Origin: Rhodothermales bacterium
Lineage (GTDB): Bacteria > Bacteroidota > Rhodothermia > Rhodothermales > Bin80
Assembly (NCBI GenBank): GCA_965220365.1
Contig: OZ244823.1
Coordinates: forward strand, 1,300,361-1,364,360
Direction: 5' to 3'
DNA length: 64,000 nucleotides
Shown here piece by piece: positions 4,324 through 24,700 of this stretch. The translations under genes were made by a program, and so were the position numbers. The notes below the pieces were generated by a model. It did no database searches, was not told the DNA's origin, and saw nothing but the letters and a program-made list of their open reading frames with translations. The first letter of the stretch is position 1; each line of letters starts with the position of its first letter.

Positions 4324-5298
4324 TTGAAGCTTGCAACTATTGACGTCGGGACAAACGCTGCAAAGCTTCTGATCTCTGAGTTGACTTCCAGTGGCAAATT
4401 GAAACCACTTGTGGAAGAGCGGCGAATGATTCGGCTTGGAGAAGGGGTAGATGCGCACGGCATTCTAAGAGAAGCGGCCGTCGAACGTCTTGTTCAGGCA
4501 TTACAGAGATTTCGTTCCACAGCGGGGCATTGGCAAGTGGAGAGGTGCGTTGTAGCAGGAACCAGTGCTTCTCGGGATACGGGCGATAAAATTGTTGCGA
4601 TCGTAAGAGAACGAACGGGATTGCACTATGAGATACTCTCGGGAGATCAGGAAGCAGATTTGAGCTATGAAGGGGCAGTTTCGGGGCTGCCCAATGTTGT
4701 GGATAGGATCGTCACATGTGATATAGGTGGTGGCTCGACAGAAATTGTTGAAGGAATGCCGGATGGTCACATCCTTCAGCGATTCAGTTTGGATATCGGC
4801 TCCGTACGTATTAAAGAACGATATTTTTCTTCGCAGCCGCCTGATCCCAAGGAACTGAAAGGGGCCACAGAATTCATTAAAAAATCGTTGGCTGAGCTAC
4901 CTTTTTCGGGAAGTCAAACAGGGCTCCTCGTCGGTGCATCAGATGTACATCGCCTTTTACTGGAGTTGCAACATGAATTAACTTCGGGAGAACTTCCGAT
5001 AAAATTTGACAGATCGAACCCGAATTGGAAACAGCTCCAGGTGAAAGAGGAGCACCCGGATAAACTCTCATGTATTCAGGTTCAGTGTTGGCTGGAGCTC
5101 TTGACTCCTATGACAACGTATGATGTTCTAGCTCTGAACCCGGAAAAGCTCCGAGGCAGGGCTGATGTATTCCCTGCTGCGATCTTGATTTTCCTGGAAG
5201 TGATGAACGCGCTGAGACAAGAATCAATCACAGTAAGTCCGTGGGGGCTATGTCATGGTATGGCATTGAGAATTTTCAAGACGGGTGTAGTAAAGTAG
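4324..5298 (+). CDS. Ppx/GppA-family phosphatase (exopolyphosphatase / guanosine pentaphosphate phosphohydrolase)
   Basis: 324 aa. The N-terminus KLATIDVGTNAAKLLISE is the ASKHA phosphate-1 motif. The internal DIGGGSTE motif is typical of Ppx/GppA. TTG start. Confidence 0.8.
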   Translation: MKLATIDVGTNAAKLLISELTSSGKLKPLVEERRMIRLGEGVDAHGILREAAVERLVQALQRFRSTAGHWQVERCVVAGTSASRDTGDKIVAIVRERTGLHYEILSGDQEADLSYEGAVSGLPNVVDRIVTCDIGGGSTEIVEGMPDGHILQRFSLDIGSVRIKERYFSSQPPDPKELKGATEFIKKSLAELPFSGSQTGLLVGASDVHRLLLELQHELTSGELPIKFDRSNPNWKQLQVKEEHPDKLSCIQVQCWLELLTPMTTYDVLALNPEKLRGRADVFPAAILIFLEVMNALRQESITVSPWGLCHGMALRIFKTGVVK

Positions 5299-6573: not shown

Positions 6574-6831
6574 GTGATGTCCAGATATGATCCAAATATG
6601 GATGCCGACCTTCGCCAGAAAATAGAAGATGGACTTGATTCAATTCGTCCTTATCTTGTTGCTGATGGTGGGGAGGTTCAGCTACACAGAATCACAGATG
6701 ACATGGTTGTGGAACTTAAGTTACTCGGTGCCTGTGGTACATGTCCGATGAGTACCATGACATTACGTGCGGGGATTGAGCAGGCATTGCGGCATGCTGT
6801 GCCACAAATTTCACGAGTGGATGCAGTGTAA
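6574..6831 (+). CDS. NifU C-terminal-domain (Nfu-like) Fe-S scaffold protein
   Basis: 85 aa with the LLGACGTCPMSTMTL CxxC motif of the NifU/Nfu C-terminal domain. It lies adjacent to apbC. Confidence 0.85.
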   Translation: MMSRYDPNMDADLRQKIEDGLDSIRPYLVADGGEVQLHRITDDMVVELKLLGACGTCPMSTMTLRAGIEQALRHAVPQISRVDAV

Positions 6832-6876
6832 GGTGCTAACATAGTAGGACATCAGAAAACACAAACTCAGAATAAG

Positions 6877-7650
6877 ATGAATCAAAAAGGACTTTTGGCA
6901 GGCATTCTAGCCCTGACCGTTTTTATTGGACTGCAGCCTTTGTCTGCTTCCGCACAGATGGAATTTCAATATCAGAGGGGTAGCCTGTTGAATCCATTCT
7001 CAGGACGTCATCATGCAACGAACATCCTAACGTTCCAGCACGCAGGTAGCTGGAAGCTGGGGCGGACTTTTTTCTTCATTGACTTTTTGGATGATGACTC
7101 GGATGATGGATTTAACGATAGAGATTTTTATGGAGAGTGGTATCCATCGTTGAGTTTCAGCAAGCTCTTTGGTCAGGACATCAAGATAGGCCCCATCGTA
7201 GACGTTTCCGCGGTTGGTGGCTTGAACTTTGATGGAGATGTCAACGTTCTCAAGTTTTTGCCAGGTGTGCAGCTTTCGTGGAATATCCCTGGATTTATCT
7301 TCGTGAATACGGATTTCGCCGCAATCGTGGATCACAGTGACGGAACACAACATGATACTGGATTCATGTTTGATATCAGTTGGCTCAAGGTAATCAATAT
7401 TGGGAGCCAGTCTTTTTCATTCATGGGCCATGCCGAGTACATCAGTGCAGTAGAGCGCAAGGACAACGGGGGAACGATTGAAGCATGGATCTTGGCGCAG
7501 CCACAGCTGGTATGGGATGTGGGCAATCTATTCAAGTCACCAAACTGGCTTCATGTGGGAGTCGAGCTTCAGTATTGGTCGAACAAACTGGGAGTTGATG
7601 GGCAGGATGAATTTCGCCCCGAGCTTCTGGTTATCTGGCGGATGCAGTGA
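6877..7650 (+). CDS. Outer-membrane beta-barrel protein, Tsx/OmpK-like (possible nucleoside channel family)
   Basis: 257 aa with the signal peptide MNQKGLLAGILALTVFIGLQPLSASAQ. Alternating aromatic/hydrophilic beta-strand patterning and DFYGEWYP/..YWSNKLG motifs recall the Tsx family. No search was run. Confidence 0.5.
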   Translation: MNQKGLLAGILALTVFIGLQPLSASAQMEFQYQRGSLLNPFSGRHHATNILTFQHAGSWKLGRTFFFIDFLDDDSDDGFNDRDFYGEWYPSLSFSKLFGQDIKIGPIVDVSAVGGLNFDGDVNVLKFLPGVQLSWNIPGFIFVNTDFAAIVDHSDGTQHDTGFMFDISWLKVINIGSQSFSFMGHAEYISAVERKDNGGTIEAWILAQPQLVWDVGNLFKSPNWLHVGVELQYWSNKLGVDGQDEFRPELLVIWRMQ

Positions 7651-8120
7651 GCTTTCTCGTGGTGAAGGAGAGCTTCTGATTTCGTTGACCCCGATCGAAT
7701 AAATTCCGTTTGACGCTCTTGACCAACTCGGTGACGATTTCACCTGTTATTTGCTGATATCGGCTGATCTAAACGCGGAACGTGGACTCGAATCTTGGGA
7801 GTTCCTTGATGTCGATGCACTGTCATTATGGTGATGTTCTAAAGTGTCATTTTCCTCCGGCTCATGTTTTTGAGCATGTCCATGCGTGACCTGTAGGGAT
7901 CATTGATTTTGACATGGCACAGCGATACAGTCCCAGATTTTGTTGCAGTGCTGGGCTGTTTTGGCTATCATATGTGGAGGTGACGCCCACCCGGATGATT
8001 CGTAGCTGGATTGGGTTGCGTATCTGGTTTGGGAGATGATGTTTTTGTGGCTGTATCCGTGATTGTGGTCTACGATGCCCTAAAGTCGGTGGGCATGCAC
8101 GCTTACTGATGTAGTACTCT

Positions 8121-8859
8121 GGCTCCTCCCCTTTATCAGTCGGTATAATCATCTCCGAACGTCTTCGGGATATAGATCAAGTCCTCCCAGATGGAAGTAA
8201 ATAGCGTTGGCAAATCGTTTTTTTTTGTTGCGAAAGCCTCGACTGCGCATTTTGACGGTTTTGATTCGACTGTTGATGCCTTCCGCGGGCCCATTGCTCA
8301 CCTTCAGGATGATCGTATCAATCGCGTTCCAACTCACACCCATCAGACGCGCCACCGCCAACACACTCGGCTCCTGCAGCCAATCCATTACCAGAGACTC
8401 AAACTCCACCGCAAACCGAGCGTTCGGTTCTGCCCATGGAATCGATACCGAACACATTCCATGCTCAGGAAACTCTACACATGGAAGACCTGCAACCACC
8501 ATCGTGCGGTACGCACACATATCCAGATGGCCCATTGCCGACGACGCTTATCATAATCTGGACATATGGCATCATACTCAGGGCACCTCAATGGGTGGAC
8601 TGCTTTGCAGGTTACCTGGATCTGCACTTCCCGCGCCTTATGCGCAATTGTCACATCGGGAACCTCCCACGGAGAATGAATGCCGAACAGGCGGCTGATA
8701 CCCTTCGGTCGTACTGACAGATAGTTGATGAGAATGTAGTGGAAAATAAAATCGTGATGAAATACCCGGAACAAGCAAGAAATGGGCGTGAATTCCACTC
8801 ACATTCCTTACATGTACAACAGGCCCCAACATTCTACCCATGCAAATGGGGGAAGAGCC
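8121..8859 (-). mobile_element. ISL3-family element, internally deleted and frameshifted derivative (non-autonomous)
   Basis: The terminal sequences are GGCTCCTCCCCTTTATCAGTCGG (8121-8143) and, inverted, ...ggggaagagcc (ends 8859), matching the GGCTCTTC-type ISL3 inverted repeats. The element encloses transposase remnants. Confidence 0.7.
8149..8798 (-). pseudogene. ISL3 transposase pseudogene: N-terminal zinc-finger/HTH region joined to the extreme C-terminus, with the DDE core missing and one frameshift
   Basis: ORF 8475..8798 gives ...CPEYDAICPDYDKRRRQW. ORF 8149..8535 gives GHLDMCAYRT..VEFPEHG..VPWAEPNARF..SWNAIDTII then jumps straight to SNGPAEGINSRIKTVKMRSRGFRN...GGLDLYP, the ISL3 C-terminal signature. 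Confidence 0.7.
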
Positions 8860-8952
8860 ATATTTTGAGACTTGGCAGCATTTTTTACGCCTTTTTTGTG
8901 CCAATTCCCATTTTTATTTTGTATAATTCCAGAATCACTTCAATTTTTCAAA

Positions 8953-10233
8953 ATGGTACCTGAGACACAATTTGTTCTTAATACGTTTGCTTTCCTTATC
9001 TGGGGGGCCCTTGTAATGTGGATGGCGGCCGGCTTCACGATGTTGGAGTCTGGGTCGGTCCGCACCAAAAACGCATCCGTGATTTGCCTGAAAAATCTGG
9101 GTTTATATGCGATTGCAGGCTTAGCCTACTATATCATCGGTTATAATCTGATGTATACGGATGTCTCCGGCTTCATTGGGAGTTTTAAGCTGTTTTTCAA
9201 TGCTACCCCGGAAGAAGTCGCTCTGGTCGGTGGGGATACAAGTGTACAAGAGGCGGTCGTAGACAGTGGGTATTCCCAAATGTCGGGTTGGTTTTTTCAG
9301 ATGGTGTTTGTGGCTACTACCGCATCGATCGTGTCTGGTGCGTTGGCGGAACGGATCCGATTATGGGCATTTTTCTCGTTCGTACTTGTTTTGACTGCCA
9401 TTATATATCCGATCGTTGGTGCATGGACTTGGGGAGAGGGTTGGCTGTATGAGCTAGGCTTTTCGGATTTTGCTGGCTCAACGATTGTTCATGGTACAGG
9501 AGGATGGGCTGCACTTGCGGGGGCAATCATACTGGGGCCTCGTTTGGGAAAATTCAAGAAGGATGGTAGTGTAAATCCCACTCCACCCTCCAGTATCCCG
9601 ATCGTAACTTTGGGCGTGTTCATTTTATGGTTTGGCTGGTTCGGATTCAACGGCGGATCTCAATTGGCTTTGGCAGGAACCGTTGATGCGATCAGTATTG
9701 CAGGAATTCTTGCCAATACAAATCTCGCGGGTGCTGCCGGACTCTTTGCTGCGATCGTCGTTTCGCGTCCAATATTGGGTCGATTTGACATGTTTGCGAT
9801 CCTGAACGGTGCGCTGGCTGGATTGGTATCCATTACAGCTGCCCCCACCATGCATCACCATGGGATTGCCATTCTCATTGGTTTTGTCGGTGGTGTAGTT
9901 TGTGTCTTGGCAATCAAGTTGTTGGACAAGATGAAGATAGATGATGTTGTTGGTGCAGTACCCGTGCATCTCTTTGCAGGGATTTGGGGAACGGTTGCGG
10001 TTGCATTTACTGTAGATGGGACAAGCTTTGGAGTCCAGCTTTTGGGGATTGTGGTAATTGGAGCTTTTGTGTTCTCTGTTTCATTTGCAGTGTGGAAGCT
10101 GATAGATGTTCTTATTGGAACCCGTGTTTCAAAATCTGTTGAGCGTCTTGGACAGGATGCCGCCGAGTTGGGCGTGGATGCGTATCCTGAATTTGTATTG
10201 ATGCCAGAGGACTATGATGATGACGAAGGATAG
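8953..10233 (+). CDS. amt: Ammonium transporter (Amt family)
   Basis: The ORF-track start is 8872. The ATG at 8953 (MVPETQFVLNTFAFLIWGALVMWMAAGFTMLESG) matches the usual Amt N-terminus. There are about 11 TM segments and the conserved HG.GG and FGWFGFNGGS motifs. Confidence 0.9.
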   Translation: MVPETQFVLNTFAFLIWGALVMWMAAGFTMLESGSVRTKNASVICLKNLGLYAIAGLAYYIIGYNLMYTDVSGFIGSFKLFFNATPEEVALVGGDTSVQEAVVDSGYSQMSGWFFQMVFVATTASIVSGALAERIRLWAFFSFVLVLTAIIYPIVGAWTWGEGWLYELGFSDFAGSTIVHGTGGWAALAGAIILGPRLGKFKKDGSVNPTPPSSIPIVTLGVFILWFGWFGFNGGSQLALAGTVDAISIAGILANTNLAGAAGLFAAIVVSRPILGRFDMFAILNGALAGLVSITAAPTMHHHGIAILIGFVGGVVCVLAIKLLDKMKIDDVVGAVPVHLFAGIWGTVAVAFTVDGTSFGVQLLGIVVIGAFVFSVSFAVWKLIDVLIGTRVSKSVERLGQDAAELGVDAYPEFVLMPEDYDDDEG

Positions 10234-10585
10234 ATGAGACTATCGTAGTTCCTCCGATTCCCTTTAGACTTCCAGATCCATGGGGATGGCAGACATCATT
10301 TCTTCTTATGTCGGTGTGAATCTAGCAAACAGGCGCTTGAATTGCACAAATTAAGAGTGGGGCGGGATAAGCTGGGGGAATTATGTACATCAACTCACAG
10401 TAATAGCTGGAGAGCCATAAAATTTGAACTCCTTTTTCCAACAGTCTCAGCTTGTCAATGCTCCAGTCGTCATTTAATCACAAACTGGTTCTGATCAAAT
10501 CAGCCACAATGATATCTCCCTCCATGCAAGTCCTCGGTTGATTCAGTGAGAAACCAAAATTGAATCATCCCATACAAATGCCGAT

Positions 10586-12706
10586 ACGCGAATTCGCCAT
10601 TTCTCTCCGACCCTACTGAATTTCCCGGGTTAATTTTCGATTTTTTAGCCCCAACCCCCCTGATTTCGGCCTAAAACCGCCTGATTCAGGGCAAAATACG
10701 TGTTTTTGGACGATGTTTTGTCTAATCCCCCCAATGTAGTGGATTTTTTGCGAAACATTGCCGCAGCCCACGCATTCAACCCTCCCAAACAACCCCGCTC
10801 CTGATGTATATCCGTACCAAACCCCGGACCCTTAAATCCGGCAAAAAAGCCTGTACCTATTCCCTGGTTGAATCCCATCGTGTCCAGGGGAGTCCCAAGC
10901 AGCGGACGATTCTCAATCTCGGCAAAGACTTTCCCCTCCCCAAAGAACAATGGTCAGCGCTGATGCAATTTGTCATGGACGAATTACGCGGATACGCACG
11001 CCTGCCCATGGAGGATGAAGCCCTGCTCCAGACCGGTCAGGATATCCTTCGCCGACTCAAGAACAAGGGCTACAATATCCACGCTCCGCGCGATGATCGG
11101 GATGCAATCCTGACTCATGAGATCCATCATACCGACACGCGAACCATTGGCGGCGAGCGCGTGGCGCTGCGTGCCCTGCGCACGCTGGGGTTTCCACAGA
11201 TTCTGCAATCCTTGAAGTTCAACCAGGATCAGATCAACTGGGCCCTCGCGCTGGTGGTGGGGCGGATGCTGTCTCCGGGCAGTGAGCGGCAAACCTATGA
11301 ATGGATGTGTGAACGCTCCAGTATCATCGAATTACTCCACGGCAAGCTTCCAGGAGATCGCACCCTTTATCGCATCGCAGCCCGCCTTTACAAGCATCGA
11401 AAAACGGTGATGGACGAACTCTTTGGTAACACCAAGGCATTGTTCGGCTTTACCGAATCCATTGCCTTCTTTGATTTGACGAACACCTACTATACGGGGC
11501 GCAAAAAGGGAGCTCTCTTACGCCATGGTCGCAGCAAGGAAAAGCGTAGAGATTGTCCGCTGGTCACCTTAGCCTTGACGATGGATGCTTCGGGGTTTCC
11601 GCGTACAGCGGAAATTCTGCCCGGCAATGCCAGTGAACCCAAGACCTTGCGCACGGCGATTGAACAGCTCAATGGCAGCACCCCCACGGTCATTATGGAC
11701 GCAGGGATCGCTACCGAAGCAAATTTGACGTATTTGAAGGATGCGGGATTGAACTGGATCTGTGTGCAGCGCACAAAGACGCCCCCGGTGCCGGACCGGG
11801 AACCGGATCAGGTTTTTCAGACGACCAGCGAGATGCAGGTACGTGCATGGGAACTTGAGCAGGAAGATGGAGAACGACGCGTGTATCTGCACAGCGCGGC
11901 CCGGCAGGCACTCGGCGATCAGATCATGACCACGAAGCGTACCAGATTTGAGGCCGCCATCACGCACTTAAACGAAGGACTGACCGTGCCCGGGCGTCCG
12001 AAGAACCATGAAGTGATCCAACGGAAGGTTGGTCGACTCCTTGAGAAATACAAGCAGGTTGGATATCAGTATGAGGTCAAGGTGATTCCGAAAAAAGACA
12101 GCGCACATGCCGAAAAGATTCTTCTTACCCGTCGGTCTGCCTATGATGCCTGTACGGAAGCGTTTGGAGGCTATGTGCTGCGTACCAGTCACACAGCATG
12201 GCCCTGTGAGGAGCTTGCACGGACCTATTGGCAATTGGGCGAGATTGAACGCACGTTCCGAACGATGAAATCCGATCTCGGATTCCGTCCAATCTATCAT
12301 AGCCAGGATGAGCAGATTGAAGCACATCTGTTCCTGTCCATTCTGGCCTTTCATGCCGTTCATCTCATTCGAAGCAAATTGGGCGCGAAACAGATCCACA
12401 AAAGCTGGGGAACGCTCAAAACCAAACTCAATGAGCACAGGCGCGTGACAACCGTACTGCCACAGAATAAAACCCACTGTATCCTGCTCAAACAAGATCA
12501 GGACCTCAAACCATTCCAGCGCCAAATCTTCCAGATCATGGAACTCCCGCTCGGAAATAATACGCGGCGAATCAAGGCCAAACGCAAAAAAAAAGAAGAC
12601 GCCAAAGTGTAGAATAAGCTCCCAAATTCAACCCCTCTAACAACCCCTGAAAAATGGGGGACAGAAAATCTCAACAAAAAATTCCACTACAATGGCGAAC
12701 TTGCGG
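10586..12706 (+). mobile_element. IS1634-like (IS4 superfamily) insertion sequence, apparently intact
   Basis: The left end is acgcgaattcgccatttctctcc. An imperfect inverted copy, aatggcgaacttgcg, lies near 12691-12706. A single 602-aa transposase ORF is enclosed. The boundaries are approximate. Confidence 0.7.
10804..12612 (+). CDS. IS1634/IS4-superfamily DDE transposase
   Basis: 602 aa. The N-terminus MYIRTKPRTLKSG..YSLVESHRVQGSPKQRTILNLG is typical of IS1634-type transposases. The candidate DDE blocks are FFDLTNTYYTG, VIMDAGIATEANL and YWQLGEIERTFRTMKSDLGFRPIYH. Confidence 0.85.
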   Translation: MYIRTKPRTLKSGKKACTYSLVESHRVQGSPKQRTILNLGKDFPLPKEQWSALMQFVMDELRGYARLPMEDEALLQTGQDILRRLKNKGYNIHAPRDDRDAILTHEIHHTDTRTIGGERVALRALRTLGFPQILQSLKFNQDQINWALALVVGRMLSPGSERQTYEWMCERSSIIELLHGKLPGDRTLYRIAARLYKHRKTVMDELFGNTKALFGFTESIAFFDLTNTYYTGRKKGALLRHGRSKEKRRDCPLVTLALTMDASGFPRTAEILPGNASEPKTLRTAIEQLNGSTPTVIMDAGIATEANLTYLKDAGLNWICVQRTKTPPVPDREPDQVFQTTSEMQVRAWELEQEDGERRVYLHSAARQALGDQIMTTKRTRFEAAITHLNEGLTVPGRPKNHEVIQRKVGRLLEKYKQVGYQYEVKVIPKKDSAHAEKILLTRRSAYDACTEAFGGYVLRTSHTAWPCEELARTYWQLGEIERTFRTMKSDLGFRPIYHSQDEQIEAHLFLSILAFHAVHLIRSKLGAKQIHKSWGTLKTKLNEHRRVTTVLPQNKTHCILLKQDQDLKPFQRQIFQIMELPLGNNTRRIKAKRKKKEDAKV

Positions 12707-12835
12707 ATAGAACCGTTAGTGTAGGAACAGGTCCAGCACAAAAGATTTTCTCAGACATAACCATAACAAGTTTCTTTCCCAAAAAATTTTCTGCTTTCCG
12801 CTTACGGATGAGTGCAGGCAGGTGGCATTTCTTTT

Positions 12836-12859
12836 GGGAATTATAGTGAATAGTTGAAA
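12836..12859. repeat. Left terminal inverted repeat of the IS1595-family transposon
   Basis: Exact reverse complement of 15566-15589. Confidence 0.9.
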
Positions 12860-12917
12860 CAACTTCGATTCTTCTACGTATAAGATAATAGACAAAACAA
12901 ATTTGAGGTTGTATATT

Positions 12918-13862
12918 ATGGCTAGCCCAGGACGTTCCTACCGAGAAGGAATCACGTTTTTAGAATTGGCTGAAAGATTCCCCGATGAAGCATCTGCTCA
13001 AAAATGGTTCGAGAAAGTGCATTGGCTAGACGGTAATTTGTGCTGCCTGCGCTGTGGCAGTGAGAACGTATACCGGTGCAAACACAAGACCATGCCATTC
13101 CGGTGCCGGGATTGCAAGAAGTATTTCAGCGTCAAGACCGGAACGGCGATGGAATCTTCTAATCTGCCATTAAGGAAATGGGTATGGGCTCTCTACTTGG
13201 AGAACACAAACCTGAAAGGGGTATCCTCTATGAAGCTGCATAGAGATATTGGTGTTGCACAGTCCAATACGTGGCATATGCTACACCGTATCCGCGAAGG
13301 CTTGTTACCGGAAATGATTAATGAGTTTGAAGGGCCGGTAGAGGTAGACGAAGCATACATAGGTGGCAAGGAAGCCAACAAGCATGAGGACAAGAAACTC
13401 AATGCTGGGCGGGGTACTGTTGGCAAGAGTGCTGTATTGGGCGTGAAAGATCGTAAGACCAATCAGATTACCGCGAAGGTGATTGAGGATACCACCAAGC
13501 CAACGGTGCAGGAGTTCATCAATGATAACCGCTCCAAAGATGCTTCAGTATTCACCGATGAGCATAGCAGTTATGAAGGCTTGACCAACCATGCATCTGT
13601 AAATCACAGCCAGAAACAGTGGGCAGTATCTACTGTGCTGGGAGAATACGCTCACACAAATGGCATCGAATCATTCTGGGCGGTTCTGAAGCGTGCCTAT
13701 CATGGCACCTACCATCACCTAAGCAAGAAACACCTTAACCGCTACGTAACTCAGTTTGCCGGCAAGCACAATCTACGAGAACTGGATACCATTGACCAAA
13801 TGGCAACGGTTGTCAGGGGCATGGCCGGGAAGCGGTTGAAGTATAAAGACCTAGTCGCATAA
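12918..13862 (+). CDS. IS1595-family (ISXO2-like) DDE transposase
   Basis: The ATG at 12918 (MASPGRSYREG...) is preferred over the TTG at 12903. It has the N-terminal zinc ribbon CCLRCGSENVYRCKHKTMPFRCRDCKKYF and the motifs VEVDEAYIGGK, FTDEHSSY and HTNGIESFWAVLKR, which are characteristic of the family. Confidence 0.9.
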   Translation: MASPGRSYREGITFLELAERFPDEASAQKWFEKVHWLDGNLCCLRCGSENVYRCKHKTMPFRCRDCKKYFSVKTGTAMESSNLPLRKWVWALYLENTNLKGVSSMKLHRDIGVAQSNTWHMLHRIREGLLPEMINEFEGPVEVDEAYIGGKEANKHEDKKLNAGRGTVGKSAVLGVKDRKTNQITAKVIEDTTKPTVQEFINDNRSKDASVFTDEHSSYEGLTNHASVNHSQKQWAVSTVLGEYAHTNGIESFWAVLKRAYHGTYHHLSKKHLNRYVTQFAGKHNLRELDTIDQMATVVRGMAGKRLKYKDLVA

Positions 13863-13871
13863 TGACGCCCG

Positions 13872-13883
13872 CCCCCCCCCCCC
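13872..13883. repeat. Poly-C homopolymer (12 C) between the transposase stop and the methyltransferase body
   Basis: Counted directly in gcccgCCCCCCCCCCCCgaaaaat. It lies inside the conserved-looking upstream extension of the methyltransferase reading frame. Confidence 0.9.
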
Positions 13884-13950
13884 GAAAAATCGTGCCAACT
13901 GGAAAAATCGGACGCTATTCATCCATGACAACCTTCCAATTCTCCGTGGC

Positions 13951-15366
13951 ATGAACAGTGACTCTGTTGATCTGATTGCAACGGATCCCCCGTTCAACAA
14001 AAAGAGGCAGTTCAATGCTCCATTAAAATCCAAAGCATCTGGGCAGAAGTTTGAAGATCGTTGGAGATGGGATGAAGTAACCAAAGAATGGCATGATTTG
14101 ATCGCGACCGACTATCCAGCAATCAAAGAGTTAATTGAGGCTGCGGTGGTGATTGAAGGCGGAAGTATTGACAGGCAGACAGGGAAAGTAGACACGGGGA
14201 AAACAAAAAACAGTGTTGCTGCTTTTCTTGTGTGGATGGCACCGAGATTGATTGAAATGAAACGGGTATTAAAACTCACTGGGTCAATCTATCTGCATTG
14301 TGATCCAACTGCAAGCCATTATCTAAAGCTGTTGATGGATGCAGTATTTGGCAAAAATAATTTCAGGAATGAAATTGTGTGGCGCAGAACAACGGGTAAC
14401 AAAAGTTCAACGAAGGGGCTATCTAAGAATTCAGATATTATTTTGCGATACTCCAAGTCAGGTAAGTTTATCTGGAACCAAGACGCAGTGACAGTACCAT
14501 ATGATCTGAACAACTTGGACAAAAAAAAAACGCTAAAGCAGTACTCCAAAACTGATTCAGATGGCAGGCGGTATGCCTTGACTGATCTCACCGATCCTAC
14601 ACAAAATCCAGAATCAAATTGCACGTATGAAGTAATGGGCGTAACTCGGACATGGAGGTGGATTAAAGAACGGATGGATCAAGAAATTGCAAATGGTCGG
14701 GTGGTGCAGACTAAACGAGGGAATGTGCCAAGATTCAAAAGATACTTGGATGAGCAAGAAGGAAAGAAAATGGATTCCATTTGGACGGACATACCAAGAG
14801 TTGAGGGAAAGTCGAAAGAAAGCACAGGTTGGAAAACCCAAAAGCCAATAGCCCTCTATCAGAGGATCATACAGGCATCAAGCAACAAAGAAGATTTGGT
14901 ATTGGATCCTTTTGCTGGATGTGCAACAACATGTGTAGCTGCGGAATCTCTGCAACGTCGCTGGATCGGCATTGATATTGATGAAGTAGCTGCTACCGTT
15001 ACGCGAGACCAGTTGTTTAAATATGCAGGACTGAATCAGTCGCTCGACGATACGTTTGTGCAGGTGAAGACCCAACCCCCGAAGCGTACGGATTCCCCCT
15101 CTATGAGTGACGCCCGTATGCGATTGGTACTCTGGAAAAAACAGGGTCACAGGTGTGCCAATCCTTACTGCTCTTCTAAAAGTGACCTTCGAAAAGAAGA
15201 TTTACATTTAGATCATGTCATCCCTAAATCCCGAGGTGGTCCAGATGATATATCCAACCGGAATGCACTCTGCGGAAACTGCAATTTGCGCAAAGGCAAG
15301 AAGGCTTGGGGAATGTTTCTTGACGAAGAGCGAAGCAGACAGCCACATCCATCTTTACCCTGCTGA
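13951..15366 (+). CDS. Beta-class (Mod-like, PF01555-type) N6-adenine/N4-cytosine DNA methyltransferase fused to a C-terminal HNH nuclease domain. The N-terminus is probably truncated in the present frame.
   Basis: Motif IV is SVDLIATDPPFN at the N-terminus. The block YLHCDPTASHYLKLLMDAVFGKNNFRNEIVW follows. Motif I is LVLDPFAGCATTCVAAESLQRRWIGIDID near residue 320. The C-terminal HNH is HLDHVIPKSRGGPDDISNRNALCGNCNLRKGKK. The frame stays open upstream to 13855 and encodes NRTLFIHDNLPILRG, a typical methylase N-terminus. Confidence 0.85.
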   Translation: MNSDSVDLIATDPPFNKKRQFNAPLKSKASGQKFEDRWRWDEVTKEWHDLIATDYPAIKELIEAAVVIEGGSIDRQTGKVDTGKTKNSVAAFLVWMAPRLIEMKRVLKLTGSIYLHCDPTASHYLKLLMDAVFGKNNFRNEIVWRRTTGNKSSTKGLSKNSDIILRYSKSGKFIWNQDAVTVPYDLNNLDKKKTLKQYSKTDSDGRRYALTDLTDPTQNPESNCTYEVMGVTRTWRWIKERMDQEIANGRVVQTKRGNVPRFKRYLDEQEGKKMDSIWTDIPRVEGKSKESTGWKTQKPIALYQRIIQASSNKEDLVLDPFAGCATTCVAAESLQRRWIGIDIDEVAATVTRDQLFKYAGLNQSLDDTFVQVKTQPPKRTDSPSMSDARMRLVLWKKQGHRCANPYCSSKSDLRKEDLHLDHVIPKSRGGPDDISNRNALCGNCNLRKGKKAWGMFLDEERSRQPHPSLPC

Positions 15367-15373
15367 TAATCTC

Positions 15374-15556
15374 ATGAAAAACATGCCACCCGAGAAACAA
15401 TCCAAGTCGAATCCGAAAGACCGTTTAGACGCAATGCTAGACGAGCCATGCCGGAACGAGCGTTACGGGGGAATGACGATGCGTGAGATGGTACGGAAAG
15501 TGGTGCTGCGCAGGGATGACCAGGTAGAGAAACGGCAGAAAACCGACCTGAAATGA
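15374..15556 (+). CDS. Small hypothetical protein (60 aa) inside the transposon
   Basis: The ATG at 15374 lies just after the methylase stop (MKNMPPEKQSKSNPKDRLDAMLDEP...). It is the downstream part of ORF 15215..15556. No recognisable motif. Confidence 0.3.
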   Translation: MKNMPPEKQSKSNPKDRLDAMLDEPCRNERYGGMTMREMVRKVVLRRDDQVEKRQKTDLK

Positions 15557-15565
15557 GCGGAGCCT

Positions 15566-15589
15566 TTTCAACTATTCACTATAATTCCC
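15566..15589. repeat. Right terminal inverted repeat of the IS1595-family transposon
   Basis: Exact reverse complement of 12836-12859. Confidence 0.9.
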
Positions 15590-15759
15590 TTTCTTTTTAC
15601 TGTATCTTTGAGGAAAATGAGACGGGACGAAAAGAGAACGCTTAAAATTCGTCTGGTTACTGCGGAGAGTATGTTTTTAAAATTACGGGTGTATCCGTGA
15701 ATGCTTCGGTTCCTGATGACTGTCCGTCACTCTTCCTCTAAATTTCCCTTGTTTAGGTT

Positions 15760-15770: not shown

Positions 15771-18700
15771 GTGATGTTTAGGTTACTACTTTGTGTCCTC
15801 CCCTTAATCGTCCTTGACCTAGAAGATGCCAAACACCATCGAATTCAAGCGGCGCTCCATATTGATCAAGTTGCCCCGTCAGAAACTTCCCGTAAGAATG
15901 AGATACAGAGGGGAAAATATGAGGATTTTGCGGAGTTGAGTTTGATGGAAGCTAGCCGGAAGTTCGCGGGTGTATATGTCGAGCAGGCCGGGATAGCCCA
16001 TCGTGTGGCAGCAGATGACAAAGGGCAGGTTGTAAGCCCTAATATGGGGTGGACATCTGGATTTGAGTTGACCACCGCCAGGGTTGGAGAGCTTGATGAT
16101 CATATATCTGGATTCGGCATAGATACAAATGTTTTTGATACGGGCCGGGGAATATCGGTGAGGATAGGGCCGGATGACTCATTTACAAAGGTGGGAATGT
16201 TTTCCCTGATGGGTAATGCATCAGACAATAGTGGATTTACGATGGCTACAGAGCCCCAGAGTGATGTAGGAGACAAGGATGCAAAGGTATTGGATAGGCA
16301 TGGTGTGAGAGCGATCCCAGATGTTATTATAGAGGGCGGATTAACTATCCAAGCCACAATCCATTCATCTTCAATTGCTATGATGGAAGATTACAACATA
16401 CCTAGATGGGAACCCCTTCAATCAGATATAAATGACCATTTTTGGAATTTTCAATTTCCAAAGAGTGCGAAAATTTCCAGTACCCGAATCGGGATGGATA
16501 ATGGGGATACTGATCATGGGACGGAAAGATTATTTCTCCCCGGCATTACACATTTAAGTTCTGCAGTTGAGGAATTGAGAAAATTTGGGTGTCGACCTTC
16601 AAACTGCTCACTCCCAATCACAATCCACACGAAGAGGCCAACACTTAAAATCAGCGATATCCCCAACAAGATCAACTCCAAGACCATGTTCACGGCCATC
16701 TTCACCTTCAGTGAGGATGTAGCAGGCTTTGATATTATAGATGTGACGGTAACTGGTGGTTCTAAGGGGAATCTTTCGGGAGGCGGGACGACCTATAAGC
16801 TGCCGATCGCACCGGATGGTGATGCTGATGTAACGGTGGGAGTAAGGGCGAATTCAGTGACAAATGCCATTGGCAGTACTGGGCCAATCTCGGCGATTTC
16901 GGCCACGGCTATTTGGGATGCAACACCCCTAGACGTGACCATATCGGTGCCCAATGCGATCAATCCCTCGGCCGAGTTCACAACTACCTTTACCTTCGGT
17001 GAGACGGTGACAGGCTTTGAGACCGAGGATATAAGTGTAGCCGGTGACATGAAGAGAGTACTGAGTAGAAGCAACTCCACCTATACGATGCCGATTACAC
17101 CGACCGCATCCGAGAAGGTGGTAGTGAAAGTCGCACGCAATTCAGAAATAGATGATGTTGATAATACGGGTCCGCCGCACGAGATTGGGATAGAGGCGAT
17201 GATATGGAATACGCCTACGGTGGATTTAAAGTCACCTTCAGACCTGATTGTAGAGGGGGAGGATGTCACGATGGCAGCCATACTTTCCTCTACACTGTCA
17301 GGCGATGTGACGATTCCGGCAACGATAGATTATAAATGTAGTGATGTATGTATAGAAGATAGGCACAGCGGCGCATCTGTTTCAACGGCAATAACGATTT
17401 CTGCAGGTGATCTAGGGGGGACGAGTACTATTTCAACGACTGCAGATTCGAATAATGGTGATGAAAGGCCTAGGGTGGTGATGGATACGGGTAACCTGTC
17501 ATCCGGCGTTCGTGCAGATGTACCGAATCAGGTTGCGGTGACAGCATATGAGCCGAAGAAAGTGGAATTTGATATATCTCCAGAGACGGTGTACGAAGGC
17601 GAAGATGTCACCGTGACGGTAAGGTTTTTGAATTCACAGACTTTATCAAGTGATGTGACGATCCCTTTTCTAATGTATGATCAGAATTGGAATTCCGGCA
17701 AAAACCCCGTTGTTCGTCCACAGGCTCCAAAAAAACTTGAGGTTGAGATCAAGGCGGGGACTGTGGAGGCATCTGGTACACTTGAGACGATCATAGATGG
17801 CAGCGGGAGAGATGAAGAAGTCAGCGTGGTGTTTGGAACATTGCCGCCGGAGGTAAAGCGTGTGACGGCTGGTCGCCGATTAATCATTAAGGGGAGTAAG
17901 CGGACTGTAACATTGTCTGCGAGCCCGAATCCGGTTTTCGAGGGTTCACCAGGTGGGGTAGCGGTGACCGCCGAACTTTCTTATGCACATTCACAGGAGG
18001 TCCGTATTCCGTTGACGTATCGTGACAAGACGGCACCTGGAACATCTTTGACAGCAGAGCCAACGGATTATGACGATGTTGATTTCATCACGATCTCAGC
18101 AGATAGTACGACAGGGACCGAAACAATAGCCATTCCTGATGAGGCTCCTATACCCAAGGATAGTGAGGATGAAACATTCATGGTCGTAATTGATGAGTCC
18201 ACTCTCCAGTCAGACTTGATCGCAGGGCTTCCAAAAGATGTGGAGATTACCATCAGGGACAATGATAAGGTGGAGGTAAATTTAGAGTTGCTTTCACCGG
18301 GAATTGTGCTTGAAGGCGAAAACCCTGCAGCAAGAATAGAGGTGAAAATCTCAGAGATACTGCCGAATACTGTTGCAATTCCATTGTTAATGACTCAGGA
18401 CCTTCCGACATCTGGACAATCAGCAGTGTTATGCCCCGCCGTAATCAAAGCGGGAGAAAAAAGCACGGAATATGAGATTTTACGTGCAGTGGATGATGAT
18501 GATAAGGATGAGCAGTATACGGTCACGTTGGATCCGTCCCCGCCTCTAGGCACTCCTTCTTCTTGCTCCGCCCATGTCAATTCCTGGCCAGTTGAGGTAC
18601 TTGAGGGATCGGATAACTCTGTCACGTTTACGATTCAGGATAGGCCTGTGGTGAAATTAACTGCTTCGCCAACAACGCAAAATGAGGGGGATTCGGTGGA

Positions 18701-21700
18701 GGTCAAACTGGAGCTTTCGTATGCATTGGAGAAAGATGTGAGTATCGATGTCAATGCGGCACCAAGGTCCGACCCACTTTTTGCTTATACGTCGTGGGAT
18801 GATTTTGAGACGCTGTGGGTTGGAGGGATTCTGATTCCCAAAGGAACAACAATCGCTAGAGATACGGTCGTCATCAAGACAGATTTTGAGGCCGAACCAG
18901 ATGAGGTCTTTAATGTAGGGTATCCGAAGTCACGATTGCCGGATGCGGTGCGACATGCTGAACAACAAACAAGAATCTCGCTTCCTGGCATTCCCTGTGA
19001 CGACGTTACTTGTGCCATTACGATCAAGGATGTTGAGCCAGAGCAGATTGTAACCTTATCGGCATCCCCAAACCCGGTTTTTGAGGGAAATTCAACAACG
19101 CTGACGATGACGCTGACTAAGCCGTTGCCAAAAAGCGAGGTGAGAGAGTTTCAGATCCTTAGCAACGACCCTGATTCCGATGCCAATGAACACGACATTG
19201 CTTTGCCTCTGAGGCATGCGGGACCTTGGAATGTTAGGTGGTTTAGGTTTGGCGAGGACAAACTTAAGTCCGAGGTCGTAATTGAAATAAAAGATGATGG
19301 CATAGACGACGAAGGGGACGAGAAGTTAATCTGGCAAATTGTAGGTTTTACGAATACCGAAGTGAAGCATGCGTGTTCGCATGTGTATTCTAAAAAGTCC
19401 CTCTGCAAGAGTGCCATTGTAATCAAAGATCCGGTCAAGATCACAGTGACTCCGTCAGCGGCGATCACGATGGCGGAGGGAGGTACTGCGACCTTTGGGG
19501 TATCGCTAAGTTCAGCGCCGTCTTCAGATGTGACCGTGGCGATGAGTGGGCTTGTAGGCACGGATCTGACAGCTCCGCGGGCGGGTGGATCGAGCTTAAT
19601 ATTTACGCCTACGAACTACAGCACACCGCAGGAGATAACGCTGGTTGCGGCGAATGATGATGATGACGTTAAGGATGATGACGTTACCCTGACCTTAACG
19701 GGTTCGGATGCGGAATATGACGGGGTAACTACGGATGTGACGGTGACGATTGAAGATAACGATGTCGGAGCGATCATAGCGAATCCATCAGATGTTAAGA
19801 TAACGGAAGGTAGTACTGCGACCTTTGATGTGTCGCTAAGTGCTAGACCATCAACAAACGTGACAGTGGAACTGAGTGGTCATGCAGGTACGGATCTGGG
19901 TACTACTCCACCGGACCCGCAGACGATAATATTTACGCCTCATAATTACACTATAGCGCAGTCAGTGACCTTGACGGCAGACGAGGACACTGATTTTTTA
20001 GATCGATTTGAGTGGTTATCCTTAGATGCCTCTAATGCGGAATACGATGGTGTACAGACATATGTAGGGATACTCATTGATGATAACGATGCTTTAAAAA
20101 TCACGATTGACGAGGGAAGTTCGGTAGAGGCCCTTGTTCTATCCCTGCCTACTAAACCGACATCAGATGTGACGGCAACGATTACCGGATATATAGGCAC
20201 AGCTCTGGGTACTATCCCACCGGACCCGCAGACGATAATATTTACGCCTCATAATTACACTATAGCGCAGTCGGTGACCTTGACCGCAGATGAGGATGAT
20301 GATATACAGAATGATGTAGTGATGTTGGTTGCGGAGTATTCTGGCGGCGACTATGGCGGGCAGGACGTGAATATCGAGGTAACGATTAGGGATAATGATG
20401 CGGTGCCGCCGATCGTAGATATTGACATGCCGGCCCGGATCAACAGTGCGGCGCCGCTGACGGCAAGCTTTACGTTTGATAAATCGGTGACTGGGTTTGT
20501 GTTGGCGGATGATGTAACGGTCACCGGTGGCACGGCGGGGGCGCTCAGCGGCAGCGGCTCCAGCTACAGTCTGCCAATCACGCCGTCGGGGGGAAGTGAT
20601 GTGGTGGTGACGGTCGCGGCGAACAGCGTCACGGACGACCTTGGCAATTCCGGTCCGGCGACGGCAGTGTCGAAAACGGCGACCTGGGATGCGGCGGTTC
20701 CGACGCTGGCGATCGGTGGGGTTCCGGGGAAAATCAACAGTACGACGGCGTTCACGGCGAGCTTTACCTTCAGTGAGGATGTGACGGGGTTTGTGGCGGC
20801 GGATGTGGGTGTGACGGGCGGAGCGGCGAGCGGCTTCACGGGCAGTGGGGCGAGCTACAGCGCGACGATCACGCCGACGGGGAATGCGGATGTGGTGGTG
20901 AGTGTGGATGCGAACAGTGCGACGGACGGGGTGAACCTGGCGCCGGCGAGCGAGGTGTCGAAAACGGCTACCTGGGATGTGGCGGCGCCAAGGGTAACGA
21001 TGGTCGTGCCGCCCTGGATTAACAGCGCGGGCAAATTCACGGTAAATTTTACGTTTAATAAAATAGTGACGGGCTTTGAGGCCGCGGATATAAGGGTTAT
21101 CGGTGGCACGGCGGGGGCGCTGATCGGCAGCGGGGCGATCTACAGAATGCAGATCACGACGCCGGGCGGGAGTGATGTGTTGGTAACGGTCAAGGCCAAC
21201 AGCGTCACAGACAACATTGGCAATTCCGGTCCGGCGACGGAAGTAACGGCAATAGTCATGTGGGATGCGGCGCCGCCGACCGTAGATATTGACATGCCGA
21301 CCCGGATTAACAGCACGACCGCATTCACGGCAAACTTCATGTTCGATAGAACAGTGAGGGGCTTTGTGGCGAGGGATGTGAGTGTGAGTGGCGGCACGAG
21401 GGGGGCGCTCAGCGGCAGCGGCTCCAGATACAGAATGTCGGTCACGCCGTCAGGGGGAAGTAATGTAGTAGTGACCGTGGGTGCGAACCGTGTCTTCGAC
21501 AATGATTTCCGTAATGGTCCGGCGACGGCAGTGTCGAAAACGGCGGTCTGGGATGCGGCGGTTCCGACCGTAGATATTGCCATGCCGACCCGGATTAACA
21601 GCACGGCGCCGCTGACGGCAAGCTTCACGTTTGATAAAGCGGTAACCGGGTTTGTGTTGGCGGATGATGTGACGGTCAGTGGTGGCACGGCGGGCGCACT

Positions 21701-24700
21701 GACCGGCAGCGGTTCCAGCTACAGTCTGCCGATCACGCCGACAGGTGGGAGTAATGTAGTAGTGACGGTCGCGTCGAACAGCGTCACGGACGACCTTGGC
21801 AATTCCGGTCCGGTGACAGATATTTCCGAGACAGCCACCTGGGATGCGGCGCCGCCAAGGGTAAGGCTCATCATTCCAGACTGGATTAACAACACGGACG
21901 CATTCACGGTATACTTCATGTTTAATAAAATGGTAACCGGCTTTGCGGCGGCGGATATAACGGTGACCGGTGGCACGGCGGGGGCACTGACGGGCAGCGG
22001 AGCGAGCTACACGCTGCCGATCACGCCGGCGGGAGGTGAAGATGTGGTGGTAACGGTCGCGGCCAACAGCGTCACGGACAATATCGGCAATTCCGGTCCG
22101 TCTCCGGCGGTTACGAAAACGGCCACCTGGGATGCGGCGCCGCCGACGGTAGATATTTCCATGCCGGCCCGGATTAACTCTGCGGCGGCGTTCACGGCGA
22201 GCTTTATGTTCGATAGAACAGTGGGGGGATTTGAGGCCGCGGATATAACGGTGACCGGTGGCACGGCGGGCGCATTGAGCGGCAGCGGGGCGAGCTACAC
22301 GCTGCCGATCACGCCGGCGGGGGGAAGTGATGTGGTGGTGACGGTGGGTGCGAACCGTGTTTTCGACTATAGTTTCCGTCTCGGTCCGTCCACGGCAGTA
22401 ACGGCGACGGCCATCTGGGATGCGTCAGCACCGACCGTAGATATTTCTGTGCCGGCCCGGATTAACTCTGCGGTGGCCTTCACGGCGACCTTTACGTTTG
22501 ACAAAGCGGTGACGGGGTTTGAGGCCGCGGATATAACGGTGACCGGCGGCACGGCGGGGGCACTGAGCGGCAGCGGGGCGAGCTACACGCTGCCGATCAC
22601 ACCGGCGGGGGGAAGTGATGTAGTGGTAACGGTCGCGGCCAACAGCGTGACCGACCAGGTGGGCAATCTCGGTCCGGTGACGGCAGTAACGGCAACGGCG
22701 ACCTGGGACGCAGCGGCGCCGACGCTGGCGATCACGGGAGTTCCTTCAAAGATCAACAGTACGACGGCGTTCACGGCGACCTTTACGTTTGACAAAGCGG
22801 TGACGGGGTTTGTGTTGGCGGATGATGTGACGGTGACCGGCGGCACGGCGGGGGCACTGAGCGGCAGCGGGGCGAGCTACACGCTACCGATCACGCCGTC
22901 GGGGGGTGCAGATGTGGTGGTAACGGTCGCGGCGAACAGCGTGACCGACCAGGTGGGCAATCTCGGTCCGTCCACGGCAGTAACGGCAACGGCGGTGTGG
23001 GACGCATCGCCGCCGACGGTAGATATTTCCATGCCGGCCCGGATCAACAGTACGGCGCCGCTGACGGCGACCTTTACGTTTGACAAAGCGGTGACGGGGT
23101 TTGAGGCCGCGGATATAACGGTGACCGGTGGCACGGCGGGCGCACTGACGGGCAGCGGGGCGAGCTACACGCTACCGATCACGCCGTCGGGGGGTGCAGA
23201 TGTGGTGGTAACGGTGAGTGCGAACAGCGTGACCGACCAGGTGGGCAATCTCGGTCCGTCCACGGCAGTAACGGCAACGGCGGTGTGGGACGCATCGCCG
23301 CCGACGGTAGATATTTCCATGCCGGCCCGGATCAACAGTACGGCGCCGCTGACGGCGACCTTTACGTTTGACAAAGCGGTGACGGGGTTTGAGGCCGCGG
23401 ATATAACGGTGACCGGTGGCACGGCGGGCGCACTGACGGGCAGCGGAGCGAGCTACACGCTGCCGATCACACCGGCGGGGGGAAGTGATGTAGTGGTAAC
23501 GGTCGCGGCCAACAGCGTGACCGACCAGGTGGGCAATCTCGGTCCGGTGACGGCAGTAACGGCAACGGCGACCTGGGACGCATTGGCGCCGACGCTGGCG
23601 ATCACGGGAGTTCCTTCAAAGATCAACAGTACGGCGCCGCTGACGGCGACCTTTACGTTTGACAAAGCGGTGACGGGGTTTGAGGCCGCGGATATAACGG
23701 TGACCGGTGGCACGGCGGGCGCACTGACGGGCAGCGGGGCGAGCTACACGCTACCGATCACGCCGTCGGGGGGTGCAGATGTGGTGGTAACGGTGAGTGC
23801 GAACAGCGTCACGGACGATCTTGGCAATTCCGGTCCGGTGACGGCAGTAACGGCAACGGCGGTGTGGGACGCATCGCCGCCGACGGTAGATATTTCCATG
23901 CCGGCCCGGATCAACAGTACGGCGCCGCTGACGGCGACCTTTACGTTTGACAAAGCGGTGACGGGGTTTGAGGCCGCGGATATAACGGTGACCGGTGGCA
24001 CGGCGGGCGCACTGACGGGCAGCGGAGCGAGCTACACGCTGCCGATCACACCGGCGGGGGGAAGTGATGTAGTGGTAACGGTCGCGGCCAACAGCGTGAC
24101 CGACCAGGTGGGCAATCTCGGTCCGGTGACGGCAGTAACGGCAACGGCGACCTGGGACGCATTGGCGCCGACGCTGGCGATCACGGGAGTTCCTTCAAAG
24201 ATCAACAGTACGGCGCCGCTGACGGCGACCTTTACGTTTGACAAAGCGGTGACGGGGTTTGAGGCCGCGGATATAACGGTGACCGGTGGCACGGCGGGCG
24301 CACTGACGGGCAGCGGGGCGAGCTACACGCTACCGATCACGCCGTCGGGGGGTGCAGATGTGGTGGTAACGGTGAGTGCGAACAGCGTCACGGACGATCT
24401 TGGCAATTCCGGTCCGGTGACGGCAGTAACGGCAACGGCGGTGTGGGACGCATCGCCGCCGACGGTAGATATTTCCATGCCGGCCCGGATCAACAGTACG
24501 GCGCCGCTGACGGCGACCTTTACGTTTGACAAAGCGGTGACGGGGTTTGAGGCCGCGGATATAACGGTGACCGGTGGCACGGCGGGCGCACTGACGGGCA
24601 GCGGAGCGAGCTACACGCTGCCGATCACACCGGCGGGGGGAAGTGATGTAGTGGTAACGGTCGCGGCCAACAGCGTGACCGACCAGGTGGGCAATCTCGG

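Follow-up and report, generated by a model that had tools for sequence, protein, structure and literature searches.

The 64,000-nt stretch of contig OZ244823.1 analysed here (assembly GCA_965220365.1, positions 1,300,361 to 1,364,360; referred to as the window) originates from a Rhodothermales bacterium and contains a 2,754-bp mobile unit at positions 12836-15589. The host belongs to the Rhodothermaceae; its UvrB shares 97 % identity with that of a metagenome-assembled genome from this family. The unit is an autonomous, and probably still mobile, transporter insertion sequence (tIS) of the IS1595 family, i.e., an insertion sequence (IS) that holds between its inverted repeats a passenger gene with no role in transposition. 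Its gene order is left inverted repeat (IRL), transposase gene (tnp), a gene encoding a Mod-like beta-class methylase fused to an HNH domain, an open reading frame (ORF) of 60 amino acids (aa) and right inverted repeat (IRR). Related elements carry the same backbone with other cargoes or with none, and a poly-C tract at the beginning of the cargo gene places the full-length methylase out of frame with its start codon. The explanation favoured as a whole, and considered reasonably probable, is that of an autonomous tIS with an exchangeable cargo slot, a restriction-modification (RM)-like methylase-HNH cargo and a poly-C switch.

Boundaries and family of the element

The unit is bounded by perfect 24-bp inverted repeats, GGGAATTATAGTGAATAGTTGAAA and its exact reverse complement (24/24), and 100 dinucleotide-preserving shuffles of the window gave no inverted-repeat match, even when up to three mismatches were allowed. 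Both ends are directly abutted by an identical target-site duplication, TTTCTTTT, which stops at 8 bp, as an A (12827) precedes the left copy and a T comes after the right one; an 8/8 match at such fixed positions would arise by chance with a probability of about 1.5e-5. The 24-bp repeats, the 8-bp duplication and the size of the unit had been claimed in an original prediction made from the DNA sequence alone, and all of them were reproduced on re-examination. The three ORFs listed in that prediction are also present, one of which, the 471-aa methylase-HNH ORF, turned out to be an incomplete reading of a longer gene. A chance or composite origin of the inverted repeats was ruled out by the shuffles and by the sister elements described below.

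The transposase matches PF12762 (DDE_Tnp_IS1595; E=1e-36, positions 3-149 of 153) and the NCBIfam model NF033547 'IS1595 family transposase' (E=9.5e-48, 162.9 bits with a cut-off of 75); its N-terminal zinc ribbon, PF12760, is found below the threshold (E=4e-4, 20.7 bits with a cut-off of 25.4). A GAGG sequence is located about 10 nt upstream of the tnp ATG, the stop codon is TAA at 13860-13862, and intact transposase relatives exist at 95, 89, 88 and 80 % identity. The element thus combines the features of the IS1595 family, namely the catalytic domain with a zinc ribbon, short terminal inverted repeats and an 8-bp duplication, and the earlier assignment to this family is upheld by the two profile matches together with the ends. 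The terminal sequence GGGAATTAT also fits ggnnatTAT, the consensus of the ISNwi1 subgroup, which ISfinder defines by the clustering of its transposases as well. An exact look-up of the window transposase and the 471-aa ORF found neither sequence on record in the collection queried. Promoter and terminator sites were no more frequent in the window than in shuffles, and Rfam and tRNA scans of the window revealed no RNA genes.

Table 1. Features of the IS1595-family element in the window
Feature	Position	Strand	Basis
Left target-site duplication TTTCTTTT	12828..12835	.	direct reading
IRL GGGAATTATAGTGAATAGTTGAAA	12836..12859	+	24/24 complementary to 15566-15589
IS1595-family transposase gene, 314 aa	12918..13862	+	profile matches
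Cargo start ATG overlapping tnp stop (TAATG)	13862..13864	+	three-frame translation
Poly-C tract C12	13872..13883	+	direct reading
Methylase-HNH coding region	13885..15366	+	PF01555, PF01844, homologue alignment
Variable target-recognition region of methylase	14352..14813	+	DNA and protein comparison with L100/L101
HNH nuclease motif (CxxxxC ... DH ... N ... CxxC N)	15166..15303	+	PF01844
60-aa backbone ORF	15374..15556	+	conservation in sister elements
IRR	15566..15589	-	24/24 complementary to IRL
Right target-site duplication TTTCTTTT	15590..15597	.	direct reading

Related elements move as whole units

The methylase-HNH fusion belongs to an extensive family (over 8,000 matches), of which the best 80 loci from representative genomes were surveyed as relatives. 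These 80 loci (L006-L085, e.g., L060) are mostly found in metagenome-assembled genomes (MAGs) of lineages known as marine-sponge symbionts and cover many phyla, with members in Dehalococcoidia, Poribacteria, Rhodothermales, Alpha- and Gammaproteobacteria, Nitrospinota and one Nitrosopumilaceae archaeon; the sponge association is taken from the names of MAGs and samples rather than from checked metadata. This distribution implies a wide horizontal spread of the family within the sponge habitat. An IS1595 transposase is encoded within 6 kb of the methylase-HNH gene in about 19 of the 80 loci, and about 61 are without one.

Ten further methylase-cargo elements bounded by inverted repeats with GGGAATTATA-like ends were identified, each of which has its own 8-bp duplication (Table 2). 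Two of them, L100 and L101, encode one and the same transposase, which is 95 % identical to that of the window. They are 99.8 % identical overall and are located at different sites in two samples (TTTGATAA vs AAGATTTA), which shows directly that whole units transpose. The earlier proposal that the window unit moved as one piece is borne out by this pair and by the separate duplications of all ten relatives. A metagenome scan with the window methylase revealed nothing closer than 38 % identity and no extra copies or tract lengths.

Table 2. Duplications, sizes, cargoes and poly-C tracts of the window element and its relatives
Locus	Duplication	Size	Cargo slot	Tract	Frame
Window	TTTCTTTT	2,754 bp	methylase-HNH	C12	out of frame
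L001/L002			methylase-HNH (L001)	C10	in frame at tract; gene otherwise decayed
L003				C14	in frame
L004				C9	in frame
L005	TTAAATAT	2,872 bp		C5TC5	interrupted, in frame
L012	CATCCTTG	5,285 bp			
L015				C11	in frame
L018	AATCGAGA	2,859 bp			
L039	TAATTTAT	2,881 bp		C11	out of frame
L049	AAAAATTA	3,154 bp			
L051	CTTCAAAA	3,277 bp			
L100	TTTGATAA	4,177 bp	methylase-HNH with unrelated middle region	C13	out of frame
L101	AAGATTTA	4,187 bp	methylase-HNH with unrelated middle region	C11	out of frame
L102			288-aa methylase and 199-aa protein of no assigned family		
L103	TAATCATA	2,864 bp	467-aa beta-methylase with borderline Mrr_cat tail (E=4e-4)		
L104	TTCTTAAA	3,604 bp	673-aa HSDR_N + N6_Mtase + Eco57I fusion		
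L105/L106			no cargo		
L107				C11	out of frame; 4x-coverage contig

A conserved backbone with an exchangeable cargo slot

The relatives L105/L106 represent a 1,406-bp IS, in which tnp (transposase 77 % identical) is followed by a 65-aa homologue of the 60-aa ORF. The latter is conserved in L001, L100/L101 and L102, its core, RNERYGGMTMREMVRKVVLRR, is invariant in four elements, and no Pfam, NCBIfam or PADLOC match was obtained for it. Since its homologue is present in the cargo-less IS, the 60-aa ORF is a backbone gene and not a passenger, as which it had been counted before. The methylase-HNH gene had likewise been described as a passenger, and here the description is correct: the backbone is found without it (L105/L106) and with other cargoes (L102, L103 and L104), and whole units occur at different sites with different duplications. 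Thus, a passenger gene lies inside the inverted repeats, a cargo-less sibling exists, and the same backbone is found with four other cargoes, as would be expected for a tIS.

The DNA comparison draws the borders of the slot. L102 and L103, whose transposases are 89 % and 88 % identical to that of the window, match the window DNA only at 12835-13860 and about 15415-15590, which corresponds to IRL and tnp and to the right end. L100/L101 share 82 % identity with the window at 12836-14351 and 72 % at 14814-15560; no DNA similarity is detectable across the recognition region in between, and the protein encoded there is unrelated. The IRL of L104 is identical to that of the window (24/24), and the IRLs of L100-L103 are near-identical. 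For the L104 cargo, the best PADLOC matches are Type I methyltransferase models, followed by weaker matches to REase_MTase_IIG. In the window, L100, L101, L102, L103 and L104, the cargo start overlaps the tnp stop (ATGA/TAATG), whatever the cargo. As this overlap is found in every case, translational coupling appears to be a conserved property of the slot, and cargo translation is predicted to be coupled to that of the transposase. L100 contains two further ORFs of 241 and 142 aa (7797-8947), which take up a second cargo position before the right inverted repeat. Neither of them has a family match above the cut-off, and PADLOC reported nothing for the extra ORFs of L100 and L102.

Alternatively, the methylase-HNH cassette could itself be mobile, for instance by HNH-promoted homing or recombination, and IS1595 elements could be a frequent landing site that acquired it repeatedly. 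L003 contains, directly after the methylase-HNH stop, a repeat of about 45 bp from the 3' end of tnp (3070-3117 vs 4640-4690), so that the cassette is bracketed by the two copies. The cassette of L018 is oriented opposite to tnp inside a single unit bounded by inverted repeats, that of L004 is located on a conjugative element, and the loci without an IS1595 transposase nearby, about three quarters of those surveyed, would also be consistent with independent movement. However, the tnp 3' end repeat is absent from the window and L107, and L100/L101 directly show transposition of the whole unit. In addition, the slot accepts cargoes without an HNH domain (L102, L104), so the HNH domain is not needed to fill it. 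A self-mobile cassette is thus considered very unlikely. A weaker echo of the L003-type repeat can be seen in L005.

The methylase-HNH cargo

The ORF finder placed the start of the cargo gene of the tIS at an internal ATG (13951), which results in the 471-aa ORF at 13951-15366. The original prediction was right about the domains of this ORF (PF01555, N6/N4 methylase, E=1e-46; PF01844, HNH, E=8e-12, residues 406-451); its start, however, is located further upstream, and the N-terminus is missing from the 471-aa form. Homologues extend about 25 residues further at the N-terminus, and an alignment with 19 of them revealed that the family N-terminus, NWxNRTLFxxDNxxxLRG, is encoded at 13885-13950, upstream of ATG 13951. 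The methylase frame is open from 13855 (TAG at 13852) and lacks a start codon before ATG 13951; the sole suitable start for the full-length methylase is ATG 13862, which lies in a different frame. The structure model is of moderate confidence (predicted local distance difference test, pLDDT, of 68), and nothing but its N-terminal core strand and its Mod-like fold was relied on. Residues 9-22 contribute a strand and a helix to the core of this model, and both are missing from the 471-aa form. A frameshift fusion between transposase and methylase was considered and rejected, as the methylase frame opens just two codons before the tnp stop.

Motif IV (DPPF) precedes motif I, which makes the methylase a member of the beta class. 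Among proteins of solved structure, M.MboIIA, M.RsrI and DpnA are nearest in sequence, and nearest in fold are the Type III Mod subunits of EcoP15I and Mbo45V and the Mod-like adenine methyltransferase 6k0w of H. pylori; the earlier label 'Mod-like' was therefore fair. A res gene, as part of a Type III Mod and Res pair, was found neither in the ORF list nor by Pfam inside the element, and PADLOC assigned the methylase to generic Type II/III methyltransferase models only. Nuclease and methyltransferase domains with conserved catalytic residues are combined in one polypeptide, in an arrangement that differs from the canonical Type IIG architecture: a beta-class Mod-like methylase with a C-terminal HNH domain. 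The HNH region comprises only about 70 residues, and its nucleotide sequence remains about 72 % identical between elements with swapped recognition regions. On its own, this region is probably not sequence-specific and would rely on the recognition domain of the methylase. An RNA-guided system was rejected, since the IscB/Cas9 NCBIfam matches of the HNH domain are far below the cut-off and reflect the shared HNH fold only. Within the recognition region, an A10 run (14521-14530), which encodes KKK, corresponds to A7 in the 95 %-identical L001, an in-frame difference of 3 nt.

Methylation and cleavage by this protein, as well as an RM-like role, are predicted from its sequence. That the cargo is a compact single-chain RM-like module is suggested by the HNH residues (Cys4, D-H and N), which are invariant in 20 diverse homologues, by the retention of the HNH domain while the recognition region is swapped, and by the nuclease-methylase fusions in sister slots; on this evidence, we give the module about an even chance. 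The cargo might instead be a solitary (orphan) methyltransferase as found in phages and plasmids, with the HNH domain as a mere accessory for DNA binding or nicking; such an enzyme could protect the vehicle and host DNA from foreign restriction by pre-methylation, or it could act epigenetically. The methylase part is 40-47 % identical to nuclease-less methyltransferases of Streptomyces and Mycobacterium phages and plasmids, the 66 %-identical homologue L004 is located on a conjugative element beside a relaxase, type IV secretion genes and a second methylase, and the slot of L102 holds a plain methylase of 288 aa. On the other hand, the catalytic residues of the HNH domain are invariant, other nuclease-methylase fusions (HSDR_N and a weak Mrr_cat) occupy sister slots, and a tract that turns expression ON and OFF would make more sense if the activity were costly or toxic. 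An orphan methyltransferase is therefore regarded as rather unlikely.

A poly-C tract at the start of the cargo gene

Whichever activity the cargo has, its expression may be switchable. A C12 tract is located between the coupled ATG 13862 and the conserved methylase N-terminus. Due to this tract length, the ATG is out of frame with the methylase, and the full-length cargo is thus OFF as sequenced; C13 or C10 would restore the frame (MTPAPPPPKNRANWKNRTLF..., MTPAPPPPKNRANWKNRTLFIHDNLPILRGM...). The tract is the sole C/G run of at least 8 in the window, and 11 of the 23 C/G runs of at least 9 in 1.18 Mb of related loci are found at the 5' end of methylase genes. Methylases that share only 41-70 % identity have their homologous tracts at one and the same codon position, and in the intact proteins these tracts are translated into a poly-Pro stretch. 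In the relatives, uninterrupted tracts have lengths of 9-14, and both in-frame and out-of-frame states are seen (Table 2). The near-identical copies L100 and L101 differ by seven single-nucleotide polymorphisms, one 11-bp indel and two homopolymer lengths, including C13 vs C11 at the tract, although an assembly error at the homopolymer is possible. As in phase-variable genes, the reading frame depends on the length of a simple-sequence repeat within the 5' coding region, and the overall pattern suggests a contingency locus that acts as a phase-variable switch; we infer that tract length varies within populations.

The second variable homopolymer of L100 and L101 lies just after the small ORF (G9 at 7659-7667 in L100, G10 at 2828-2837 in L101). 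One Rhodothermales contig, L015, contains two methylase homologues, each with a poly-C tract of its own in front: C10 (3389-3398) and C11 (5987-5997). In the window, the C12-frame ORF that starts at ATG 13862 encodes 30 aa and stops at a TGA that overlaps ATG 13951 (ATGA; 13862-13954), and the same is true for L101 (C11). Termination and re-initiation at ATG 13951 could thus lead to an N-terminally truncated methylase, which would result in three expression states rather than two, although such a protein would be without residues 9-22, which belong to the core of the structure model.

It could be argued that the cargo gene is simply broken here, that C12 represents either a frameshift or an error in the sequencing of the homopolymer, and that the differences between tracts are noise or neutral decay rather than a switch. 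Decay does occur in the lineage: the transposase of L001 is deleted, and this copy has another deletion of 1 nt and lacks the right inverted repeat; in L107, a contig with 4x coverage, the transposase is decayed. Moreover, five of the nine distinct tract loci are out of frame (window, L100, L101, L039 and L107), which is near the random two-thirds, and L100 and L101 also differ at their second homopolymer. However, the tract is kept at one codon position across diverged methylases, with poly-Pro in the intact proteins, and almost half of the long C/G runs fall at this single position. Apart from the frame at the tract, the window methylase ORF is intact with all catalytic motifs, and L005 possesses an interrupted, fixed in-frame version of the tract. 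A broken gene is, in our view, unlikely.

Proposed mode of action

The favoured explanation, a tIS with a switchable RM-like cargo, can be outlined as follows. The DDE transposase would recognize the GGGAATTATA... ends and insert the 2,754-bp unit at AT-rich sites of the Rhodothermaceae genome, thereby generating the 8-bp duplication. The backbone consists of IRL, tnp, the small ORF and IRR, and tnp is immediately followed by the cargo slot; through its overlap with the stop codon of tnp, the start codon of the cargo would couple translation of the cargo to that of the transposase. In the window element, the slot is filled by a beta-class methyltransferase of the Type III Mod-like kind, whose target-recognition domain is replaceable and which ends in an HNH domain. 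A single recognition domain could then direct both methylation and cutting or nicking, which would make the cargo a selfish or defensive module. The cargo is most likely toggled by the hypermutable poly-C tract that comes shortly behind its start codon, and the C12 copy of the window is in the full-length OFF state.

Several points weigh against this explanation. No empty site, which would read GCAGGCAGGTGGCATTTCTTTTTACTGTATCTTTGAGG, turned up, although no search of related genomes was made, and no second copy of the element was found in this genome, the assembly of which is absent from the collection queried. Homopolymer lengths are error-prone in assemblies, so that the differences between tracts and the OFF states could partly be artefacts or decay, and L001 and L107 are clearly decayed copies. 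With respect to the cargo, the HNH part of the structure model is of low confidence (pLDDT 40-55), and the closest annotated relatives are the phage and plasmid orphan methyltransferases without nuclease, whose similarity of 40-47 % extends over residues 1-380. Canonical single-chain RM enzymes combine a gamma-class methylase with a PD-(D/E)XK nuclease and not a beta-class methylase with HNH. Furthermore, a fused enzyme would be a poor post-segregational killer, as both activities decay together.

Neighbourhood of the element

An IS4/IS1634-like element is located at 10731-12695, about 140 bp upstream of the tIS, and consists of a PF01609 transposase gene (10804-12612, 602 aa) between imperfect 19-nt inverted repeats. 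L005 has an IS4/IS1634-like transposase with 45 % aa identity in the same relative position. Similarity between the two is confined to the transposase coding regions, with no relation between their flanks; explanations by shared synteny or by a target preference were therefore discarded, and the arrangement was treated as IS clustering. Further upstream, a solitary inverted repeat-like sequence, GGGAATTATGTACATCAACTC, is found at 10376-10396, the first 12 bases of which are identical to the inverted repeat of the L049 element. Neither a partner nor a transposase remnant was found nearby, and the sequence is either the relic end of another IS1595 relative or a product of chance.

Downstream of the tIS, 173 bp from its right end, starts an ORF of 5,532 aa (15771-32369) with many near-identical repeats of about 100 aa and a probable beta-barrel-like C-terminus. 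Insertion of the tIS may separate this ORF from upstream signals or supply outward transcription. Two of the relatives lie in defence-gene neighbourhoods: L103 has an MmeI-like RM gene on one side and an SNF2 helicase gene on the other (8-3892 and 6636-10016), and L107 (1-2862) adjoins QatB and TatD genes.

Significance

The movement of RM and methyltransferase genes between genomes is only partly understood, and earlier surveys described transposon-like units without naming the transposase. The lineage described here displays the whole chain: an IS1595 backbone, its empty form, a tnp-coupled slot, several cargoes and independent insertions with duplications. If the poly-C tract is a true switch, both methylation specificity and restriction could move with the element and also be silenced reversibly. 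This would matter for epigenetic heterogeneity, for barriers to gene flow and for defence within densely populated symbiont communities; sponge microbiomes, in which the methylase-HNH family is common to many phyla, are one example. For enzymology, the lineage offers compact, predicted single-chain methylase-nuclease enzymes with naturally swapped recognition domains. A bolder idea is that the IS1595 tIS lineage is a dedicated shuttle of single-chain methylase-nuclease (mini-RM) genes across sponge-symbiont phyla, tnp-coupled and poly-C-gated, i.e., a 'jumping phasevarion' that re-assorts specificity by swapping recognition domains and cargoes; this is put forward tentatively, as we hold it to be possible but doubtful.

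Comparison with known systems

Passenger-carrying IS, or tIS, are an accepted class that has been described as confined to two families, IS1595 and IS66. Passenger-carrying IS1595 elements were reportedly described by Siguier et al. in 2009 and are said to be catalogued in ISfinder/TnCentral. RM genes have been found in transposon-like units with inverted repeats and short duplications (Furuta, Abe and Kobayashi 2010; PMC2853133), and the same study refers, among other examples of RM genes or solitary methylase genes that accompany an IS, to the paper on the IS1595 family. In the searchable literature, which did not include ISfinder and the 2009 study, no description of a methylase-HNH cargo, a coupled exchangeable slot, a conserved second small ORF or a poly-C tract was found. 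The novelty claimed in the original prediction was thus too strong, given that the tIS class is established, links between IS1595 and RM or methylase genes have been cited and the fusion family is large; the specific cargo is nevertheless without a published description in this literature. The element itself is ordinary, and it is the picture at the level of the lineage, with its slot, its swaps, its candidate switch and its spread among sponge symbionts, that is worth following up.

Like other IS1595 tIS, the window element combines DDE_Tnp_IS1595 and a zinc ribbon with short inverted repeats, an 8-bp duplication and a passenger downstream of tnp; it differs in that the tnp-coupled passenger is a methylase-HNH gene behind a poly-C tract, a small ORF is conserved, and nuclease-methylase cargoes are swapped. 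The transposon-like RM units (PMC2853133) also carry RM or solitary methylase genes between inverted repeats and are flanked by short target duplications, but they mostly lack an identifiable transposase and their movement is unexplained, whereas here a transposase, a cargo-less sibling and independent insertions are found. Type III Mod proteins and phasevarions share the beta-class fold with an inserted recognition domain, the 5' repeat tract with ON and OFF frames and the exchange of recognition domains; in contrast to these, the cargo described here has no Res, is fused to HNH and is encoded on an IS instead of a chromosomal locus, and its switch is a candidate only. The Type IIC/IIG enzymes (Eco57I, MmeI) resemble the cargo in that nuclease and methylase are present in one chain with apparently one recognition region, and a Type IIG-like cargo is found in the same slot of L104. 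However, they combine a gamma-class methylase with an N-terminal PD-(D/E)XK nuclease, and the cargo of the window combines a beta-class methylase with a C-terminal HNH domain, for which cleavage is predicted. The orphan N6/N4 methyltransferases of phages and plasmids, finally, are similar over the methylase part, but possess neither the HNH domain nor the poly-C tract nor the link to a transposase.

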